NCBI GenBank assembly: GCA_030838305.1
Contig: JAUTWY010000455.1
Coordinates: 1-36,044 of the forward strand
Direction of reading: 5' to 3'
Length of the DNA stretch: 36,044 bases
DNA from: Acidobacteriaceae bacterium
GTDB taxonomy: Bacteria > Acidobacteriota > Terriglobia > Terriglobales > Acidobacteriaceae
Shown here: in pieces, positions 24,233 to 31,670 of the stretch
Position numbering within the stretch: position 1 is the first letter of the stretch
How the letters are laid out: each line of letters begins with the position of its first letter
Notes under the pieces: generated by a model
Seen by the model: the letters and a program-made list of their open reading frames with translations, nothing else
Told to the model about the DNA's origin: nothing
Databases searched by the model: none
Translations under genes and position numbers: made by a program

Positions 24233-25345
24233 CTACAGCGTTCGCTTAAACAGTGGAATCGCAATTCCGAGAGTAACGGCCGCAAAGATCGAAAGAAACA
24301 GCATGTCCCCCCACACCGCGGCGAGAGTCGTCTCTTTCAACAGCAGGCACTTAAAACCGTCGACCGCGAAGGTGAAGGGATCGACGCTGGCGATGGCTCG
24401 CAGCCATCGGGGAAAGGCCTGGATCGGATAGATGGCCCCGCTGGGAAAAAACAGCAGCGTATTCAGAATGCCGAACATGGCCCGCGGCACCAGCGGATCT
24501 TCGATGCGCACCATCAGCAGGAACATCATGGTATTGAAGGCCAGCGATGTCAGCACAATCATCACCAGCAGTCCAAACATCGTGACCGGATTGAAAATCG
24601 TGTTCACGCCGGAGATAAGCGCGCCGATCACGCATATGATGATGCCGGTCATCACTGCTTTGATCGCGCCCGCCAAGTTCAGTCCCAATACCAGTTCGAG
24701 TTTAGTAATCGGCGTGACCAGATAACCTTCGTGCACGCCGCGCGCCTTATCGTCGATGTAGAGCATGCCGCCGCCGATCATCACCGAGACAAACATCGCC
24801 AGAGTGAGCGAGCCGGGCAGCAAGTATTTCATATATTCGATATAGGGATAGAGTTCGACAATGTCCAGCGCGGTCTGCCGCAGAACTCGCGGCTCGATGG
24901 TGGGCTGGTTGAGAGCGTTGGTGAGGCTGGAGAGTTCCGCCTCCAGTGCGGAGCTCATAAAGTTGTCGCTGTTATCTACAACTAAGGCAATCTGCGGATG
25001 ATTTTCCTCGTAAACCCGCCGCGAAAACTGTGGGGGAATGATTACTGCGCCCTCGAGCTTGCCGTTGCGAACATCTTCCACAGCTTTTTTTTCATCGTCG
25101 TAGTACACCGGAACGAAAGTTCGGATGTTTGCGCGGACGGAGTCAAAAGCCTCGCGAATCTTCAGCGCCTGCGTGCCGCCATCCTGATCCACAATGGCGA
25201 CGCGGGCATCACGAATCTTTCCGCCGAACGCGTTTCCCAAAATGACGAGCTGCACCAGGGGAAAAATCATCGATGCCAGCATCAACGCCGGCGAGCGGAA
25301 AAACTTGCGCATCTCGCGCTCGACAATCGCCATGATGCGGTTCAT
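24233..25345 (-). CDS. ABC-2 type transporter permease
   Basis: 370 aa. N-terminal TM, large extracytoplasmic loop, then five clustered TM helices, as in ABC-2 / YbhS-YbhR-like permeases. ATGA overlap with the upstream ATPase gene. Confidence 0.85.
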   Translation of the reverse strand: MNRIMAIVEREMRKFFRSPALMLASMIFPLVQLVILGNAFGGKIRDARVAIVDQDGGTQALKIREAFDSVRANIRTFVPVYYDDEKKAVEDVRNGKLEGAVIIPPQFSRRVYEENHPQIALVVDNSDNFMSSALEAELSSLTNALNQPTIEPRVLRQTALDIVELYPYIEYMKYLLPGSLTLAMFVSVMIGGGMLYIDDKARGVHEGYLVTPITKLELVLGLNLAGAIKAVMTGIIICVIGALISGVNTIFNPVTMFGLLVMIVLTSLAFNTMMFLLMVRIEDPLVPRAMFGILNTLLFFPSGAIYPIQAFPRWLRAIASVDPFTFAVDGFKCLLLKETTLAAVWGDMLFLSIFAAVTLGIAIPLFKRTL

Positions 25346-26388
25346 GGCTGCAACCCCGGCCGCTGCGGCATTGTGAAGGCATATGCTTTCTGCAGTTCGT
25401 CGCGCAACTGACGGCCCGTGTAGTGCACGAATACATCGTCCAGCGTCGTGTTCTGTACCGACAGCGACTTCACCGCCACCCCGGCTTCCACCGCCATTTC
25501 GACCAATTCAGTAGTCGTGCGCGAACCGTTGCCGGTAAGCACGCGATACATTCCCGCGCCTTCCCGCTGCACTGAGGTGACATCGTCGAGTGTGTGCAGC
25601 CGCTGCTCCCAGTCTTCGGGAGGATTCTCGAACTGCGCTTCAATCACGTTTGACCCCGGCACGCTAGCCTTCAAAGCCATCGGCGCATCGAGGGCGACCA
25701 GTTTGCCGTGATCCACGATGGCAATGCGATCGCACAGCCGGTCGGCCTCATCCATGTAATGCGTGGTGATCAGAATCGTGAGTTGCCGCTGGCTCTTGAT
25801 GTTTCCCAGCATCTCCCAGACGGCTACGCGCGACACCGGATCCAATCCGGTGGTTGGTTCATCGAGAAAGAATATTTTCGGATGATGCACAAGGCCGCGC
25901 GCAATCTCCAACCGCCGCCGCATGCCGCCCGAGAGCGTCTTGGTCTGTGCATCGCGCCATTTGGTCAGATCCACTAGCCCAAGTAGCTCCTCGATAGAGC
26001 GCTTCCTTTCTTTTGCCGGTACGTCATAAAGCTTAGCGTAGATGTTGAGGTTCTCTTCCACCGTAAGATCAAGATCGCTGGTCAGCGCCTGCGGAATCAC
26101 TCCGATCGTCCGCCGCACGGCATCAGGATCCTTGGCAACGTCATGACCTTCGATACGCGCGTTTCCTGCTGTAATTGGGATCAGCGTGGTCATCATGCGG
26201 ATCAGGGTTGACTTGCCCGCGCCATTCGGACCAAGCAGTCCGAAGATTTCGCCGTCACTCACATGGAATGAAACATCATCCACCGCGGTGAAGGTGCCAT
26301 ACTTCTTGACGATGTGCTCGACTTCGATGGCGTGAGTCGGTGTGGAGGCGGGTGATCCGCCGCTCACTTTGTCGTTGAGGTCAGCCAT
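25342..26388 (-). CDS. ABC transporter ATP-binding protein (DrrA/YbhF-like exporter ATPase)
   Basis: Walker A GPNGAGKST, signature LSGGMRRRLEIA, Walker B IFFLDEPTTGLD, H-loop TTHYMDEA. Extra C-terminal domain. Confidence 0.92.
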   Translation of the reverse strand: MADLNDKVSGGSPASTPTHAIEVEHIVKKYGTFTAVDDVSFHVSDGEIFGLLGPNGAGKSTLIRMMTTLIPITAGNARIEGHDVAKDPDAVRRTIGVIPQALTSDLDLTVEENLNIYAKLYDVPAKERKRSIEELLGLVDLTKWRDAQTKTLSGGMRRRLEIARGLVHHPKIFFLDEPTTGLDPVSRVAVWEMLGNIKSQRQLTILITTHYMDEADRLCDRIAIVDHGKLVALDAPMALKASVPGSNVIEAQFENPPEDWEQRLHTLDDVTSVQREGAGMYRVLTGNGSRTTTELVEMAVEAGVAVKSLSVQNTTLDDVFVHYTGRQLRDELQKAYAFTMPQRPGLQP

Positions 26389-27488
26389 CAGTGCTGCCCC
26401 GCTGTGGCCGCGCTCTGCGGTCTGCTCTCACCCTTGACCTGCGCCGGGGAGACCAGCACCTCGGCCGTCATTCCTGGCACGAACGCGCCTTGCGGATTGT
26501 CCAACCGGACTTTCAGTACGATGGTCTTAATATCCCTCTTGCGGCGGCTCACATCGCGCTGCGTGGCAAAGTCACCTTCCACTCCTTTGAAAAATACCTT
26601 GCCGCTAGTGATCGTGCCGCCCGGCAGCCGAACTCGCAACGTGTCGCCATAGCCGATGTGGTCTGCATAAGTTTCCGGAATCGCCACCCGTGCCCACGTG
26701 TCGGTCAGATCCACGATGGTCACAATGGCCGCACCGATGTTTACGACTTCTCCCTGTCGCGCCGCGCGTACCGACACAGTGCCGCTGACGGGAGCGTAAA
26801 CATTGGTGTAACCCAGCCGCACCGCGGCCTGATTCTTCTGCGCAATGGCATTTTTTAGATCCGCTTGAGTCGACTGCACGGTGCTCTGCGCCGCATTGGC
26901 TTGCTGCGTGCGCGCGATGGCCGCGTTCAATTCGGCTTCTGCGGCCTTCACCAGCTCTTGTTGCGCCTGAACCGTCGCTTGCGCCGCCTGCAAATTGGTT
27001 TCGGCCTGGACGCGCTCTTGATCGGAGGCTACGCCTGCTTTTGCCAGTTCGACCGCGCGCCGGCTGTCGCTGGCAGTGCGATCAAGCGTGGCCTTGGCCT
27101 GCAGTAGTTGCGCCTTTGCCGACGACACCTTCGCCCGCGCATTCACCACGTCGCTCAAAGTTGAACCTGAAGTGGACCGTTCGGTGTGCCGCATCTCGGA
27201 AACTTTGTGCTGCAGGCTCGTGATGGTTGCCGCCGCCGCGGCTTCCTGCGTCTGCAACTCGGAGGGATCGAGCACGGCAATCAAGTCTCCAGCCTTCACC
27301 GGCGTGCCTTCATCCACCAGCAATTTCTGGATGCGGCCTTCCACTTGCGCGCTGACGATCACCTGATTGGAGTCAACGGTACCGATCAGCACCAGATCCT
27401 TGGAATGGTCAGCGGAGAACACGTAGTAGATCAGCGAGATCACGAAGATGATGCTCAAGAGAATGAAGAATCGGTTACGAGCACTCAT
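26388..27488 (-). CDS. HlyD-family membrane-fusion (periplasmic adaptor) protein
   Basis: N-terminal TM. Lipoyl-like half motif (VKAGDLIAVLD). Long Ala/Gln-rich coiled coil. Beta-barrel segment (VSVRAARQGEVV..., VRLDNPQGAFVPGMTAEV). Confidence 0.85.
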   Translation of the reverse strand: MSARNRFFILLSIIFVISLIYYVFSADHSKDLVLIGTVDSNQVIVSAQVEGRIQKLLVDEGTPVKAGDLIAVLDPSELQTQEAAAAATITSLQHKVSEMRHTERSTSGSTLSDVVNARAKVSSAKAQLLQAKATLDRTASDSRRAVELAKAGVASDQERVQAETNLQAAQATVQAQQELVKAAEAELNAAIARTQQANAAQSTVQSTQADLKNAIAQKNQAAVRLGYTNVYAPVSGTVSVRAARQGEVVNIGAAIVTIVDLTDTWARVAIPETYADHIGYGDTLRVRLPGGTITSGKVFFKGVEGDFATQRDVSRRKRDIKTIVLKVRLDNPQGAFVPGMTAEVLVSPAQVKGESRPQSAATAGQH

Positions 27489-28180
27489 GGGCGTATTCCT
27501 CGTGCCGTATTCGGTGTGGGATGAAACAGCGCGGCAGAAATAAAATCCAGGACCGCGGCCCGCCGCTCGGCGATTCGCTCCGGCGCCAGAGGATTGAAGC
27601 GCACGATCCGCTGCATCACGGGAGCGCTGCTGAAATAGAAGACGATCATCGCTACCATGGAAGGAACGAAGTGCGCCGGATCCACTTTACGGAATTCGCC
27701 TTCCACGATTCCCTGCTGCAGCAACTCGCCAACCCTCCGGTAGATTGGCTGAAAGTAAGTCTTCACCAGCCGGTCAATGTGCTCTGAATGGCCTTCGCGC
27801 GCGCGCATCATTTCGCGCTGCATCAGCTTGGGATAAATTTGATTTGAAGCGATGAAATCGAAATACGCACCCACGTAGGCCATGATCTTCTTGCGTGGAG
27901 GTAAGTCGCTGTCGAGCACCTGAAAGACTTTTGTCTTCATCCCGGAAAACGCGTTATCAAGGACCGCGCCGTAGAGCGTCTCTTTGTTTTTGAAGTAGTA
28001 ATAGAGCAGCGCCTTGTTGACTCGCGCCTCGCGGGCAATGGCGTCGGTGCGCGCTCCGGCGATGCCGTGCTCGGAAAACTCTTTGGCTGCGGCCTGAAGT
28101 ATGGCGGCACGGCTCTCCTCGGGCTGGCCGCGGGAACCCATGCGGGGAGCGGGCTGTCGAGGACGAAAGAGTCGGGCCAT
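27485..28180 (-). CDS. TetR/AcrR-family transcriptional regulator
   Basis: HTH region SRAAILQAAAKEFSEHGIAGARTDAIAREARVNKALLYYYFKNKETLY. ATGA overlap with the adaptor gene, so it is the first gene of the operon. Confidence 0.9.
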   Translation of the reverse strand: MARLFRPRQPAPRMGSRGQPEESRAAILQAAAKEFSEHGIAGARTDAIAREARVNKALLYYYFKNKETLYGAVLDNAFSGMKTKVFQVLDSDLPPRKKIMAYVGAYFDFIASNQIYPKLMQREMMRAREGHSEHIDRLVKTYFQPIYRRVGELLQQGIVEGEFRKVDPAHFVPSMVAMIVFYFSSAPVMQRIVRFNPLAPERIAERRAAVLDFISAALFHPTPNTARGIRP

Positions 28181-28396: not shown

Positions 28397-29581
28397 ATGC
28401 GCTTGGCCTCTTCGTCCCCTCGTCGAGCACGCAGCATCCCCGTAAGATTGATCGTCGCTACCGCAGCTATGCTCGCCACAGGTTGCGGTGGGAACTCATC
28501 GATGAAGACCACGCTTTCCCCCCAAGCGGAGTGCGTGCAGTCGCCCCAGCCAGCCTTTGCTTACGTATTAAACCAAGGAAGCTTTGATTGGGGCAACGGC
28601 ACCATCTCCTCCTACACCGTTAATTCCTGCACTGGGAGCCTGACGCCGACGACGCCTGCTACGATCGCCACGGGAAGCAGCCCCGAAGACATGGCTGTCG
28701 ATCCTTTGGGAAGGTTCGTCTATGTGGCGAATCTTGTTTCAAATGCGGTCGATAATGCCACAATCTCGATGTACACCATCAATTCCCGTACCGGTGTCTT
28801 GACTCCGACGACACCAGCGACGGTCCCCACCGGATTTTTCCCCCAGGGAATTGGAATCGATCCTTCCGGCAAATTCGTCTACACGGCAAACAGCGACGAC
28901 AATACGGTTTCGATGTTTACTATCGATTCCACAACTGGGGTCCTGACGCCCACAAGGCCGCCTGCGGCTCCAGCGGGAATGGACCCCGGGTCCGTAACCG
29001 TCGATCCATCCGGGAGGTTCGCATACGTTGCGAATCAAGGGGATAGTACCGTGTCGATGTACACCATCGACCAAACCACTGGTGTGTTAACTCCGACGGC
29101 GCCCCCGACAACGCCAGCCGGAGGTGGACCGTTCGGTGTCACCATTGCCCCGTCTGGCAATTTCGCCTACGTGCCCAATGCATATGGGAACAACAATGTT
29201 TCGGAATACAACATCGACTCCAGCACAGGAGTATTGACGGCCACTGCGGAAGGGGCCGCGCCGGCAGGCAACTCCCCGACTTGTGTAGCGGTCAATCCGT
29301 CAGGCAAGTTTGCCTACGTAGTCAATCGACAAGACAATACGGTTTCGGCGTACACGATTAGCTCCAGCAGCGGAAATTTAAGTCACATCGGGACCATCGC
29401 AACCGGAGCGCAACCCTGGCGCGTTTCGGCCGATCCTTCCGGCAAGTTTGTTTACGTGGCTAATGAGAGCGGCAGCATTTCCATATTTGCTCTGAATAGC
29501 GACGGTACGTTGAGTTCCGCGGGAACGGTGGAAACGCCAAGCGGGGCCTTCGCGATAACCGTGGTTCAAGCCAGGCAATAG
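28397..29581 (+). CDS. Lipoprotein, seven-bladed beta-propeller of the lactonase/YncE-like type
   Basis: GGAGGG Shine-Dalgarno. Lipobox LATG|C. Seven roughly 48-aa repeats of the form F(V/A)YVAN..(D)NTVS.YTID..TGVLTPT.P...P.G..P..V.VDPSGK. Confidence 0.8.
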   Translation: MRLASSSPRRARSIPVRLIVATAAMLATGCGGNSSMKTTLSPQAECVQSPQPAFAYVLNQGSFDWGNGTISSYTVNSCTGSLTPTTPATIATGSSPEDMAVDPLGRFVYVANLVSNAVDNATISMYTINSRTGVLTPTTPATVPTGFFPQGIGIDPSGKFVYTANSDDNTVSMFTIDSTTGVLTPTRPPAAPAGMDPGSVTVDPSGRFAYVANQGDSTVSMYTIDQTTGVLTPTAPPTTPAGGGPFGVTIAPSGNFAYVPNAYGNNNVSEYNIDSSTGVLTATAEGAAPAGNSPTCVAVNPSGKFAYVVNRQDNTVSAYTISSSSGNLSHIGTIATGAQPWRVSADPSGKFVYVANESGSISIFALNSDGTLSSAGTVETPSGAFAITVVQARQ

Positions 29582-29699: not shown

Positions 29700-29981
29700 T
29701 TAGCTTGCCCCGCCCGCAATCGACGGCACCAGCAGCACCTCATCTCCATCCTGGAAGGCATAGCCAGGCCCGCCCAGAAAGCGGATGTCTTCCTCATTCA
29801 CATAAATGTTGAGAAAGCGGCGCACCTGTCCAGCTTCATCGCGGAGATGAGGTTTCAGCTCCGGAAATTTCTCATCAAGGACGGAGAACAGTTCTCCCAG
29901 ATTCGTGGCCGCGCACGCGATCGAGCCCACGCCCGCTGTGTGCCGACGCAAGGCCGTCGGAATTTGAACCGTGATCGGCAT
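29700..29981 (-). CDS. MoaD/ThiS/CysO-family ubiquitin-like sulfur-carrier protein (C-terminus ...AGG-AS)
   Basis: 93 aa with strong AAGGAGGGG Shine-Dalgarno in the 11-nt gap after the upstream gene. Sequence ...FLNIYVNEEDIRFLGGPGYAFQDGDEVLLVPSIAGGAS matches the beta-grasp carrier pattern, with the diglycine two residues before the stop. Confidence 0.8.
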   Translation of the reverse strand: MPITVQIPTALRRHTAGVGSIACAATNLGELFSVLDEKFPELKPHLRDEAGQVRRFLNIYVNEEDIRFLGGPGYAFQDGDEVLLVPSIAGGAS

Positions 29982-29992
29982 CTTTCCCCTCC

Positions 29993-31321
29993 TTATGCGC
30001 CCACCGTAGCCGCCTCTTTTGCGACCTCGGTGTTATCCAGAGTTTCGTTCAGGTATTTCTCGAATTCAGCCAGCTTAGGCGCGATCGGCCTCTCGATCTC
30101 GTACACACCCGCCAAGACATCGGTCGTCTTCAAGCCGTTTCCGGTGATGCACAACACGGTTGTTTCCTCAGGCAGAATGCGGTCCTGGCGATAGAGCTTC
30201 CGGGCCGTTCCTACGGTTACGCCGCCAGCCGTTTCGGTGAAGATGCCTTCGGTTTCGGCCAGCAGTCGAATCGAATCGATCACCTCGGGATCACTCACGT
30301 CCTCGCTCCATCCGCCGCTATGCTTGATTGTCTGAATGGCATAATGGCCGTCAGCGGGATTGCCGATCGCGAGCGAACGAGCAATGGTCGCTGGCTTTTG
30401 CGGTTCGATCTCCGCACTGCCTGTCTTTACCGCCGTCGAAATCGGAGAGCATCCAGTCGCCTGCGCTCCAAAAAACTTCACCGGCTTCTCCTCAACCAAG
30501 CCCAGCTTTGCAAGTTCGTCGAACGCCTTCTTGATTTTTGTGATCAACGACCCGCCTGCCATGGGAACGACCACGTTGTCCGGCAGGCGCCAACCCAGTT
30601 GCTCGGCAATTTCGAACCCGACGGTCTTCGATCCTTCAGCGTAGTAAGGCCGCAAGTTGACGTTGACGAAACCCCAGCGCCGCTCTTCGGCAATCTGCGA
30701 GCACAGCCGATTGACCTGGTCGTAATTTCCCGCGATGCGCACCACATTCGCGCCGAAGACCTGTGTGCCAAGAATCTTCGCGGGTTCCAGATCGGACGGG
30801 ATGAATATCCAGGCTTTGAGTCCGAGCCGGGCCGCATGCGCCGCAACGGCGTTAGCCAAATTGCCCGTAGAAGAACACGCCACCGTATCAAAGCCGAACT
30901 CTTGAGCCTGTGCCAGCGCAACCGCCACTACACGATCCTTAAAGCTCAAAGTCGGAAGGCACACGGCGTCGTTTTTCAGATAAAGATTCCGCGCGGCAGT
31001 CTTCGAATCGTTGGTGGCTCCGACCAGTCGCTCCGCGAGATGCGGGGTCTGGAACAGGGGCGTGAACCCAACCGGCAACCGCGGCTCATAGCCCGCGGGC
31101 AGCGGCAGCAATTCCGAATAGCGCCACATGTTTGGGGATCGTTGCGCAATGCGCTCGCGGCTGGCCTTCGGCTGATCAACGGAGCCTTGGGCCAGAGCAC
31201 CCTTTACGGCGTCATAGTCGTAGGTTATTTCCAGAGGAGAGAAACAGTCATCGCAAATCGAGCGAGGCTGGTTGCCCCAACTTCGTCCGCATTCCCGGCA
31301 GCGCAATTCATAGTGAGCCAT
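29993..31321 (-). CDS. Threonine-synthase-like PLP enzyme with N-terminal zinc ribbon (candidate homocysteine synthase, MetM-type)
   Basis: 442 aa. CRECG...CDDC zinc ribbon. PLP-lysine motif PTLSFKDR. ACSSTGN and a Gly-rich PLP phosphate loop. Under SAM-I riboswitch control and coupled to the sulfur-carrier gene. Confidence 0.88.
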   Translation of the reverse strand: MAHYELRCRECGRSWGNQPRSICDDCFSPLEITYDYDAVKGALAQGSVDQPKASRERIAQRSPNMWRYSELLPLPAGYEPRLPVGFTPLFQTPHLAERLVGATNDSKTAARNLYLKNDAVCLPTLSFKDRVVAVALAQAQEFGFDTVACSSTGNLANAVAAHAARLGLKAWIFIPSDLEPAKILGTQVFGANVVRIAGNYDQVNRLCSQIAEERRWGFVNVNLRPYYAEGSKTVGFEIAEQLGWRLPDNVVVPMAGGSLITKIKKAFDELAKLGLVEEKPVKFFGAQATGCSPISTAVKTGSAEIEPQKPATIARSLAIGNPADGHYAIQTIKHSGGWSEDVSDPEVIDSIRLLAETEGIFTETAGGVTVGTARKLYRQDRILPEETTVLCITGNGLKTTDVLAGVYEIERPIAPKLAEFEKYLNETLDNTEVAKEAATVGA

Positions 31322-31391
31322 ATGCTACTCGCTTTCCTGTCTTGCTCTACAGCAGCGAATAGCTGGGGACGAGCCGGGAAAAAGCGCCCTA

Positions 31392-31431
31392 AAATACGAA
31401 GGCCTCTTTCCAGGAAAAAGGAAAAGAGGTC
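31392..31431 (-). terminator. Candidate riboswitch expression-platform terminator
   Basis: Minus-strand RNA CCUCUUUUCC-UUUUUCCU-GGAAAGAGG, followed by CCUUCGUAUUUU. One bulged U and an imperfect U-tract. By eye only. Confidence 0.45.
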
Positions 31432-31463
31432 GGAATGCAAATAAACTTAAGCTTCGCATCCGA

Positions 31464-31577
31464 ATCTCATGTTCCCCGTTTCCGGGCGGGAGTTGGCACC
31501 TGGCGGTCGGGATATATGATCCCGATCCGGTTGCCGTGGCGTCACAGGGCTCGTCCCTCAGCCACTCTGCATGAAAT
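31464..31577 (-). promoter_or_regulatory. SAM-I (S-box) riboswitch aptamer
   Basis: Minus-strand read AUUUCAUGCAGAGUGGCUGAGGGACGAGCCCUGUGACGCCACGGCAACCGGAUCGGGAUCAUAUAUCCCGACCGCCAGGUGCCAACUCCCGCCCGGAAACGGGGAACAUGAGAU. It carries the conserved AGAG.GGC.GAGGGA, GCCC..UGA (kink-turn), GGCAACC, GGUGCCAA.UCC and a GAAA-capped P4. P1 (UUUCAUG/CAUGAGA), P2 (GUGGC/GCCAC) and P3 (CGGGAU/AUCCCG) all pair. Confidence 0.85.
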
Positions 31578-31611
31578 TCCAAGCCTGCCCCGAAGGGCAA
31601 ACTTGTCCTTA

Positions 31612-31640
31612 ATCCTACAACGTCAATTAAGATTCGTCAA
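31612..31640 (-). promoter_or_regulatory. Putative sigma70-type promoter driving the riboswitch transcript
   Basis: On the minus strand: TTGACG (31640-31635), 17-nt spacer, TAGGAT (31617-31612), about 35 nt upstream of the aptamer. A GCCC-UUCG-GGGC hairpin lies between the promoter and the aptamer. Confidence 0.4.
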
Positions 31641-31670
31641 CAAGATCGTTGACCACAAGATCGTTGACCG
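31641..31670. repeat. Perfect 15-bp tandem duplication within an array of TTGAC/GTCAA half-sites
   Basis: CAAGATCGTTGACCA / CAAGATCGTTGACCG. Flanking GTCAA at 31622 and 31636, TTGAC at 31649, 31664 and 31673. Confidence 0.8.

Follow-up and report, generated by a model that had tools for sequence, protein, structure and literature searches.

Organization of the locus

The stretch of DNA analyzed here, referred to as the window, comprises 36,044 nt of contig JAUTWY010000455.1 (assembly GCA_030838305.1) from an Acidobacteriaceae bacterium. Between positions 31640 and 29700, this window carries a promoter, an S-adenosylmethionine (SAM) riboswitch aptamer of the SAM-I class, a gene for a pyridoxal phosphate (PLP)-dependent enzyme of the MetM clade, and a gene for a CysO-type sulfur carrier, all on the minus strand. 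By analogy with Streptomyces, this unit is very probably a SAM-repressed metM-metO operon with which an acidobacterium resembling Candidatus Sulfotelmatobacter makes homocysteine. Such a pathway is reported for Streptomyces albulus, in which MetM, a homologue of threonine synthase (ThrC), and the carrier protein MetO convert O-phospho-L-homoserine to homocysteine (Hasebe, Adachi, Maruyama, and Hamano 2024, Appl Environ Microbiol 90:e01247-24, as cited in PMC12172450, bioRxiv 10.1101/2024.10.14.618325, and bioRxiv 10.64898/2026.09.15.751699), and the GapMind 2026 account includes the Mec and MoeZ steps of this pathway. A SAM riboswitch upstream of S. albulus metM is also described in one of these reports (PMC12172450); hence, the riboswitch-metM architecture is not new.

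A scan with Rfam covariance models detected the SAM-I family (RF00162) at 31577-31464 of the minus strand with a score of 74.0 bits (gathering score, 44.4; E = 1e-15). The match spanned the full model (positions 1 to 108 of 108) and was the sole above-threshold Rfam match returned by cmscan for the whole 36-kb window. An original prediction, made by a model from the letters of the sequence, had placed a SAM-I aptamer at 31464 to 31577, and this Infernal-type check confirmed it. When folded by itself, the aptamer produced a four-helix junction of helices P1 to P4 with a predicted energy of −46.1 kcal/mol, and this junction was the minimum-energy fold for all transcript ends between 31464 and 31385. 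The aptamer is on the sense strand of the metM-like gene, at a distance of 142 nt from the ATG. SAM-I riboswitches control methionine and SAM genes, and repression by SAM fits an enzyme of the methionine branch, not threonine synthesis.

The promoter is of the sigma-70 type (31612 to 31640, minus strand). A promoter scan recovered the two proposed hexamers, with TTGACG (31640-31635) as the −35 element, a spacer of 17 nt, and TAGGAT (31617-31612) as the −10 element. Six distinct leaders from relatives retained both hexamers but varied in the spacer and flanks. The presumed transcription start lies ahead of the 5′ stem-loop at 31605-31580.

Assignment of the enzyme

The metM-like gene (29993 to 31321, minus strand) encodes a protein of 442 amino acids, and its assignment draws on the list of open reading frames (ORFs), Pfam and NCBIfam matches, identities, a tree, a hidden Markov model (HMM), and an AlphaFold2 (AF2) model. 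The ORF has the features originally read in it, namely, an N-terminal CxxC...CxxC zinc ribbon (Cys8, Cys11, Cys23, and Cys26; nt 31300-31244) followed by a PLP domain of the ThrC fold that has the SFKDR motif and the PLP-binding Lys128 (nt 30940-30938). Pfam matched this protein to PALP (PF00291) with 216 bits.

Over residues 6 to 422, the enzyme was 51 to 52% identical to riboswitch- and metO-linked genes from five Streptomyces genomes; identity to two Kitasatospora genes was 51%. In comparison, identities to the ThrC proteins of Thermus thermophilus, Aquifex aeolicus, Mycobacterium tuberculosis, and Bacillus subtilis were 31 to 34%. These values agree with the published MetM figures of 51.6% for a cyanobacterial homologue versus S. 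albulus MetM (PMC12172450) and 33% for B. subtilis ThrC versus MetM (bioRxiv 10.64898/2026.09.15.751699). The enzyme scored 533 bits on an HMM of 41 metO-linked actinobacterial genes versus 194 bits on a ThrC HMM. The actinobacterial set was obtained from one genome per species in a scan with five sequences led by an actinobacterial relative and speaks for Actinomycetota only.

In a neighbor-joining tree, the window enzyme formed a clade with Streptomyces, Nitrospira, and archaeal members that had a bootstrap value of 100 and lay apart from both the four solved ThrCs and the other ThrC-like groups that have a zinc ribbon. Five residues that are invariant in the four solved ThrCs (T. thermophilus, B. 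subtilis, M. tuberculosis, and A. aeolicus) were replaced in the window enzyme (T88L, S155N, N157R, R160Y, and Q164S in T. thermophilus numbering), and the GNAG motif found at positions 187 to 190 of these ThrCs was A-G-G-S in the window and A[GS]GS across the MetM clade. The signature substitutions were common to all members of the MetM clade, including the window enzyme. A tblastn search of 1.17 Mb of collected loci with the four solved ThrCs detected no canonical thrC, only MetM homologues. These comparisons support the view that the enzyme is not a canonical ThrC, as had been argued in the original prediction, and the proposed phylogenetic and HMM comparison placed it with the Streptomyces metM orthologues. 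The route that had been named there as the closest parallel is the pathway of Hasebe et al. 2024.

The zinc ribbon had been regarded as a fusion. This part of the prediction did not hold, since the whole family has the ribbon, with cysteines that were invariant or nearly so in an alignment of 15 sequences; BLAST alignments to the Streptomyces orthologues start at residue 6, ahead of the ribbon. Similarly, the PRK08197 (NF006050) and PRK05638 profiles align from residues 5 to 6. The window enzyme scored 256 bits on PRK08197, below the cut-off of 303; this profile spans the ribbon and likewise carries the name threonine synthase. Ribbon-bearing ThrC-like proteins were also observed outside the MetM clade (P0250, P0258, P0260, P0261, and P0264), with differing signature residues (STGNA, STGNT, SSGNF, and others).

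No MetM-specific model was present in NCBIfam release 20. Membership of the CysK/CysM family or the fold-type I MetY family was considered and rejected, as neither was represented among the 25 best NCBIfam matches listed, which were instead ThrC, threonine/serine dehydratase, and related models. The best solved relatives of the enzyme were threonine synthases, which leave its first ∼62 residues uncovered. The AF2 model, with a mean predicted local distance difference test score of 82, consisted of a three-stranded N-terminal ribbon followed by the ThrC fold and matched ThrC structures with a Foldseek probability of 1.00 and TM-scores to the target of 0.79 to 0.85. There was no solved MetM structure in the PDB, the best structural matches being ThrCs. 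The nearest database homologues were 87 to 92% identical and derived from Candidatus Sulfotelmatobacter and other Terriglobales; every named protein among the 120 nearest was termed a threonine synthase. An identical MetM was recorded solely on a contig of 2.4 kb, and look-ups of the genes at the ends of the window gave no match.

Sulfur carrier and gene junction

The metO-like gene (29700 to 29981, minus strand) encodes a sulfur carrier with the beta-grasp fold of CysO, ThiS, and MoaD, as judged from the ORF list, Pfam, and a structure match. Both the 93-residue carrier and the 11-nt gap ahead of it had been predicted, and both were recovered; Pfam assigned the protein to ThiS (PF02597) with 42.4 bits against a cut-off of 22.5. 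The best solved match was M. tuberculosis CysO (3dwg chain C), with 44% identity and E = 2.4e-20 over residues 1 to 91, followed by the Amycolatopsis ThiS/MoaD protein 4n6e. This proximity to CysO is in keeping with the earlier suggestion that the gene pair resembles systems for protein-thiocarboxylate-dependent synthesis of sulfur amino acids. Identity to the actinobacterial MetO orthologues was 36 to 40%.

The carrier ends in ...IAGG-AS, two residues beyond Gly90-Gly91 (nt 29714-29709), indicating that it needs trimming. In acidobacterial relatives (L082 to L172), the residues following Gly-Gly were hypervariable, with GGC in 13 and endings such as GGIL, GGSR, GGAR, and GGCCADGE among the others; just two of these carrier ORFs ended exactly at GG. 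From these sequences, the tail looks like a cleaved propeptide that is under no sequence constraint. The actinobacterial carrier copies mostly end in GG or GGC.

The gap of 11 nt between metM and metO reads GGAGGGGAAAG. A Shine-Dalgarno sequence for the carrier gene, AAGGAGGGG (29986 to 29994, minus strand), was read from the sequence and overlaps the TAA stop codon of metM. The short gap suggests that translation of the two genes is coupled. Candidate MetM-MetO fusions, comprising proteins with ...ILPAVAGG ends (P0185 and P0224) and stop-to-stop ORFs across both genes, were read as open frames or frameshifts. The long ORFs in L060 and L040 start at offsets of 25 and 26 nt relative to the MetM match and, hence, are in another frame; given this and the GC-rich DNA, no fusion was accepted.

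Occurrence of the gene pair

The leader and gene pair were found again in L001, L084, and L165 to L170, and this recurrence excludes chance. L001, a syntenic acidobacterial contig of 4.6 Mb (ena:ERZ25039482:contig_1170), has the same riboswitch, enzyme, and carrier. A sister clade with 69% identity was represented by 80 metagenome loci, 73 of which had a homologous leader detectable with nhmmer, while the other 7 were cut off upstream. Across L082 to L172, a carrier ORF was located just downstream of the enzyme gene in 86 of 91 loci. The actinobacterial scan yielded 80 loci, including 12 from Streptomyces and 4 from Kitasatospora. RF00162 was directly upstream of the gene in all 16 loci scanned with Rfam, and 41 of the 80 loci, among them all those from Streptomyces, had a CysO-like ORF ending in ...AVAGG or ...AVAGGC immediately after the gene.

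In Nitrospira sp. Nam80 (L082, 3924-9152), genes for ThiS, PALP (307 amino acids), ThiF, MetM, ThiS, NIL, ThiF, and JAB proteins follow each other in this order on one strand. This cluster combines a CysO/CysM-like pair with a MetM/MetO pair, two genes of the E1 type, and one for a JAMM protease; it constitutes the strongest contextual evidence for this family working with a protein thiocarboxylate. No riboswitch was found at the Nitrospira cluster. A small stand-alone NIL-domain protein was again encoded near the pair in L084 (11069-11311); such domains are likewise part of MetN and of the archaeal homocysteine system. MetM-like proteins were also present in Thermoplasmatota and other Euryarchaeota, for which the comparison covered the proteins only.

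Leader and expression platform

When the aptamer was enforced in folding, three hairpins were predicted downstream of it (31463-31430, 31429-31403, and 31363-31324; all minus strand). The first, UCGGAUGC...GCAUUCCGA (31430 to 31463), is directly 3′ of P1 and was predicted in all seven leaders of the window clade; its paired positions hardly vary, so covariation was uninformative. The second is a terminator-like hairpin, CCUCUUUUCC...GGAAAGAGG (31429-31403), with the tail CCUUCGUAUUUUA (31402-31390), and was indicated by a tool flag and by folding (31390 to 31429 in all). By the rule of this tool, a terminator-like site was present in 5 of the 7 leaders of the window clade but in only 6 of the 58 leaders of the sister clade. 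An alternative predicted partner for the 5′ arm of this hairpin is the 3′ part of the aptamer, GGGGAACAUGAGA (31477-31465), and this pairing would form an antiterminator. The third hairpin (31324 to 31363), predicted in 7 of 7 window-clade leaders, is situated at the ribosome-binding site, where it encloses AGGAAAG (31338-31332) and ends 2 nt ahead of the ATG. Its inner stems differ among leaders (CUGU/ACAG, GCCGUUC/GAACGGC, and CCGUU/AACGG), and its outer stem is nearly invariant.

Folding and the leader alignment also identified a conserved downstream strand, GGCUCGUCCCCAGCUAUUCGCUGC (31352 to 31375, minus strand), with two potential partners. The first 10 nt are exactly complementary to GGGACGAGCC in P2 of the aptamer (31557-31548), a length of match that was attained in 11 of 1,000 dinucleotide shuffles, while the 3′ part (31363-31354) pairs with AGCGAGUAGC (31333-31324). 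The unconstrained minimum-energy fold of the leader was 12.4 kcal/mol more stable than the aptamer-enforced fold and paired 31477-31465 with the 5′ arm of the second hairpin and 31375-31352 with the 5′ half of the aptamer. All of the expression-platform elements were conserved in the seven window-clade leaders.

These alternative folds suggest how the switch could operate. When SAM is abundant, the aptamer would be bound and helix P1 locked, whereupon hairpin 31429-31403 would form and transcription and/or translation of metM-metO would be halted. When SAM is scarce, the 3′ part of the aptamer would pair with the 5′ arm of this hairpin and 31375-31352 would pair with P2, leaving the region ahead of the ATG open. 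There are good grounds for expecting SAM to turn the switch off. For the window clade, transcription attenuation is likely and an extra translational layer possible.

The sister-clade sequences suggest a different platform, of a translational type. In the Actinobacteria, the aptamer ends 13 to 75 nt ahead of the start of the protein match, and this close spacing points to translational control there. The leader in the acidobacterial lineage of the window might be a dual-acting SAM-I riboswitch that controls both transcription and translation, a composite reading that we put forward tentatively and regard, taken as a whole, as doubtful. Its elements would be that hairpin 31429-31403 attenuates transcription; that a second switch gates translation of the read-through mRNA, with 31375-31352 pairing with either P2 (site open) or the sequence ahead of the ATG (site closed); that transcriptional control was added in this lineage to an ancestrally translational switch; and that the whole operates together with a MetO precursor in which the variable C-terminal tail calls for an extra step of proteolytic maturation. 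A lineage-specific addition of the terminator would follow from both the sister acidobacterial clade (6 of 58 leaders) and the Actinobacteria being without one.

Other elements were observed in these leaders. In many sister-clade leaders (L085 to L164), a conserved GAGAGACGUCAC-like segment ∼75 to 85 nt past the aptamer complements the 3′ strand of P2, and in several of them the Shine-Dalgarno sequence GGAGAGAG is complementary to the 5′ strand of P4, CUCUCUCC. Between the promoter and aptamer of the window, a 5′ stem-loop, CAAGUUUGCCC-UUCG-GGGCAGGCUUG (31580 to 31605, minus strand), appeared in every fold prediction. Changes on both sides were found at 4 of its 11 pairs in the seven leaders, making it the only leader helix with compensatory changes. 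This conserved UUCG stem-loop possibly stabilizes the 5′ end.

Proposed pathway and alternative explanations

The pathway steps proposed for the window are carried over from S. albulus. MetO would be trimmed to its C-terminal Gly-Gly, here by removal of Ala-Ser, presumably by a JAMM/Mec-type protease. A MoeZ/ThiF-type E1 would then adenylate MetO and convert it to the thiocarboxylate, and MetM would exchange the phosphate of O-phospho-L-homoserine for the sulfur of MetO, resulting in homocysteine, the precursor of methionine and SAM.

A number of observations weigh against a SAM-repressed metM-metO operon. The MetM orthologues used for comparison were Streptomyces genes recognized by riboswitch and metO synteny and not the MetM of S. 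albulus NBRC14147 itself (GenBank BHXC01000007). The thrC equivalog model TIGR00260 accepted the window enzyme with a score of 260.6 against a cut-off of 167.1; this model was also passed by the Streptomyces metM orthologue and the Nitrospira member and, hence, does not discriminate MetM from ThrC. In the leader, the original prediction had combined a hairpin with a U-rich tract. The hairpin was found at 31429-31403, but this element was weaker than the others: CC and then UUCGUAUUUUA follow the hairpin, so that the U tract is interrupted in the window, and the four terminator-like sites in the region were not above the 2.7 ± 1.6 expected from shuffles. The tract is cleaner in relatives, such as CCUUUUUGUUUU in L165. 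The terminator and ribosome-binding-site helices are almost invariant, so covariation is silent either way. As to the carrier, 33 of the 80 actinobacterial loci (L002 to L034; Micromonosporaceae, Jatrophihabitans, Blastococcus, and others) have a metM homologue but no carrier ORF within 4 kb on either side, and two acidobacterial loci with an 88% identical enzyme (L171 and L172) have the leader and metM followed, after ∼225 nt, by a TetR gene and not a carrier gene. Lastly, no genes for an E1, a JAMM protease, thrC, thrB (homoserine kinase), or metX/metY were found within the 36-kb window.

The carrier-less loci bear directly on whether the sulfur is delivered by MetO. A SAM riboswitch was present in all four of the actinobacterial carrier-less loci scanned with Rfam (L006, L016, L025, and L029), and the occurrence of riboswitch and metM without a nearby carrier in relatives may mean that the carrier is replaceable; L002 to L034 may borrow a CysO from elsewhere in the genome or use sulfide. 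Extended to the window, the enzyme would be a MetM-type O-phosphohomoserine sulfhydrylase using free sulfide or another small thiol in vivo, with the carrier being dispensable or serving another pathway. Such a role would account for the riboswitch-linked metM genes of L002 to L034 and for L171/L172, and a later study had "MetM activity" mimicked by Na2S (PMC12172450). We consider it rather improbable for the window, where the carrier gene is 11 nt past metM and has a strong Shine-Dalgarno sequence. Furthermore, 86 of the 91 loci L082 to L172 retain the pair, the Nitrospira pair is embedded among E1 and JAMM genes, and genomes without an adjacent metO may draw on a CysO encoded elsewhere.

Other alternatives concern the reaction itself. 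Annotation would favor a true threonine synthase that belongs to an unusual zinc-ribbon subfamily and came under SAM control by happenstance, given the TIGR00260 score, the names of the 120 nearest homologues, and the threonine synthases among the best structural matches; in addition, threonine-related activities were reported for the Microcystis ThrC, which is homologous to MetM (PMC12172450). This explanation is barely credible, however, as the enzyme belongs to a clade apart from the four solved ThrCs with a bootstrap of 100, T88, S155, N157, R160, Q164, and GNAG are replaced, there is no regulatory logic in repressing threonine synthesis by SAM, the enzyme gene is coupled to one for a sulfur carrier, and MetM is often misannotated as threonine synthase (GapMind 2026). 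The carrier thiocarboxylate could also be used in another replacement reaction, either a CysM-like synthesis of cysteine from O-phosphoserine or a reaction of the cysteate-synthase type. The slightly greater similarity of the carrier to M. tuberculosis CysO (44%) than to the actinobacterial MetO orthologues (36 to 40%) would agree with the former, while the latter would be in keeping with the kinship of cysteate synthase and ThrC, although the enzyme matched the cysteate synthase model TIGR03844 weakly (42 bits against a cut-off of 325). A different reaction of this kind is highly unlikely in view of the 52% identity and identical signature residues shared with the Streptomyces metM orthologues, the association of SAM-I riboswitches with methionine and SAM genes, and the presence in Nitrospira (L082) of a separate CysO/CysM-like pair beside MetM/MetO, which implies distinct jobs. 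A SAM-repressed metM-metO operon continues to be the preferred interpretation.

Neighboring features

The genes surrounding the unit are unrelated to it and include a TetR/HlyD/ABC efflux operon, a beta-propeller lactonase, an S15 peptidase, and Ddl. The efflux operon (TetR-HlyD-ABC ATPase-ABC-2 permease; 24233-28180, minus strand) is downstream of metM-metO in the window and in L001, L165, L167, and L171. The lactonase gene (394 amino acids; 28397-29581, plus strand), located between metM-metO and the efflux operon, was seen in the window only. A perfect tandem direct repeat of 2 × 15 nt, ACAAGATCGTTGACC as read on the plus strand (31640 to 31669), abuts the −35 hexamer within the intergenic region between the unit and the divergently oriented S15 peptidase gene. 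This repeat might serve as a site for a regulator or have arisen by duplication of the −35 region, and it may be outside the metM-metO unit. A different short direct repeat, two copies of ATTCTTGATC, is present at the equivalent place beside the promoter in L167.

Significance and comparison with known systems

Literature searches gave no paper on, or mention of, MetM/MetO in Acidobacteria, in line with the original prediction that the pathway had not been characterized there. The chemistry, the carrier, and the riboswitch link have already been published; the new aspect is the phylum Acidobacteriota, and the window unit opens no new question. Its practical value is in correcting the pervasive "threonine synthase" annotation and in showing the spread of the O-phosphohomoserine route. 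As the homologues are named threonine synthase and the ThrC model accepts the protein, automated reconstructions of Acidobacteria would miss this route to homocysteine, and a second thrC may be counted in Acidobacteria, including Candidatus Sulfotelmatobacter, the genus of the nearest named homologues. The gene pair was present in Acidobacteriota and many Actinomycetota and, together with a full E1 and JAMM set, in Nitrospira; this distribution indicates that the O-phosphohomoserine route to methionine is widespread in soil and peat bacteria.

The closest known system is MetM/MetO of S. albulus, which shares with the window a ThrC-homologous PLP enzyme, a ThiS/CysO-type carrier gene following it, and an upstream SAM-I riboswitch. 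The Streptomyces MetM orthologues also have the N-terminal zinc ribbon and the same clade-specific residues. The window differs in being from Acidobacteriota rather than Actinomycetota, with an enzyme ∼52% identical to the Streptomyces orthologues and a carrier 36 to 40% identical to the actinobacterial MetO orthologues. Streptomyces carriers end in GG or GG-C, whereas the window carrier ends in GG-AS, and the window aptamer is 142 nt ahead of the ATG with an intervening terminator-like hairpin, compared to 13 to 75 nt ahead of the protein match in Actinobacteria.

The CysO-CysM-Mec-MoeZ system of M. tuberculosis utilizes the same carrier family (CysO, 44% identity), and the logic presumed for the window is also the same, with attack by a protein thiocarboxylate on a phosphorylated hydroxy-amino acid that is bound to a PLP enzyme of fold type II. 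CysM, however, is of the CysK/CysM type and acts on O-phosphoserine, whereas the window enzyme is of the ThrC type with O-phosphohomoserine as the presumed substrate; the M. tuberculosis genes are clustered with mec, while neither mec nor moeZ is present within the 36-kb window. The HcyS-HcyD-HcyF-MetY system of Wolinella succinogenes, attributed to Krishnamoorthy and Begley in 2011, reportedly also makes homocysteine via a protein thiocarboxylate. HcyS is said to be a precursor with extra C-terminal residues that are removed by a JAMM protease, resembling the window carrier in this respect, and MetY is said to be a fold-type I O-acetylhomoserine sulfhydrylase that uses O-acetylhomoserine, unlike the O-phosphohomoserine presumed for the window.

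Canonical ThrCs (T. thermophilus 1uim/1v7c, B. subtilis 6cgq, M. tuberculosis 2d1f, and A. aeolicus 2zsj) share with the window enzyme the fold, the SFKDR motif, and, presumably, O-phosphohomoserine as the substrate. The four solved ThrCs have no zinc ribbon, are 31 to 34% identical, and retain the invariant residues; the window enzyme, unlike these, is predicted to be SAM regulated and is paired with a sulfur carrier. A further parallel is the methionine/threonine branch point of plants, where the methionine branch starts from O-phosphohomoserine instead of an O-acyl homoserine and the split between the branches is under SAM control. Plants, however, employ cystathionine gamma-synthase, a fold-type I enzyme for which cysteine donates the sulfur, and a ThrC that is allosterically activated by SAM (2c2b), whereas the window is proposed to use a ThrC paralogue for the sulfur chemistry, with SAM acting on the mRNA.

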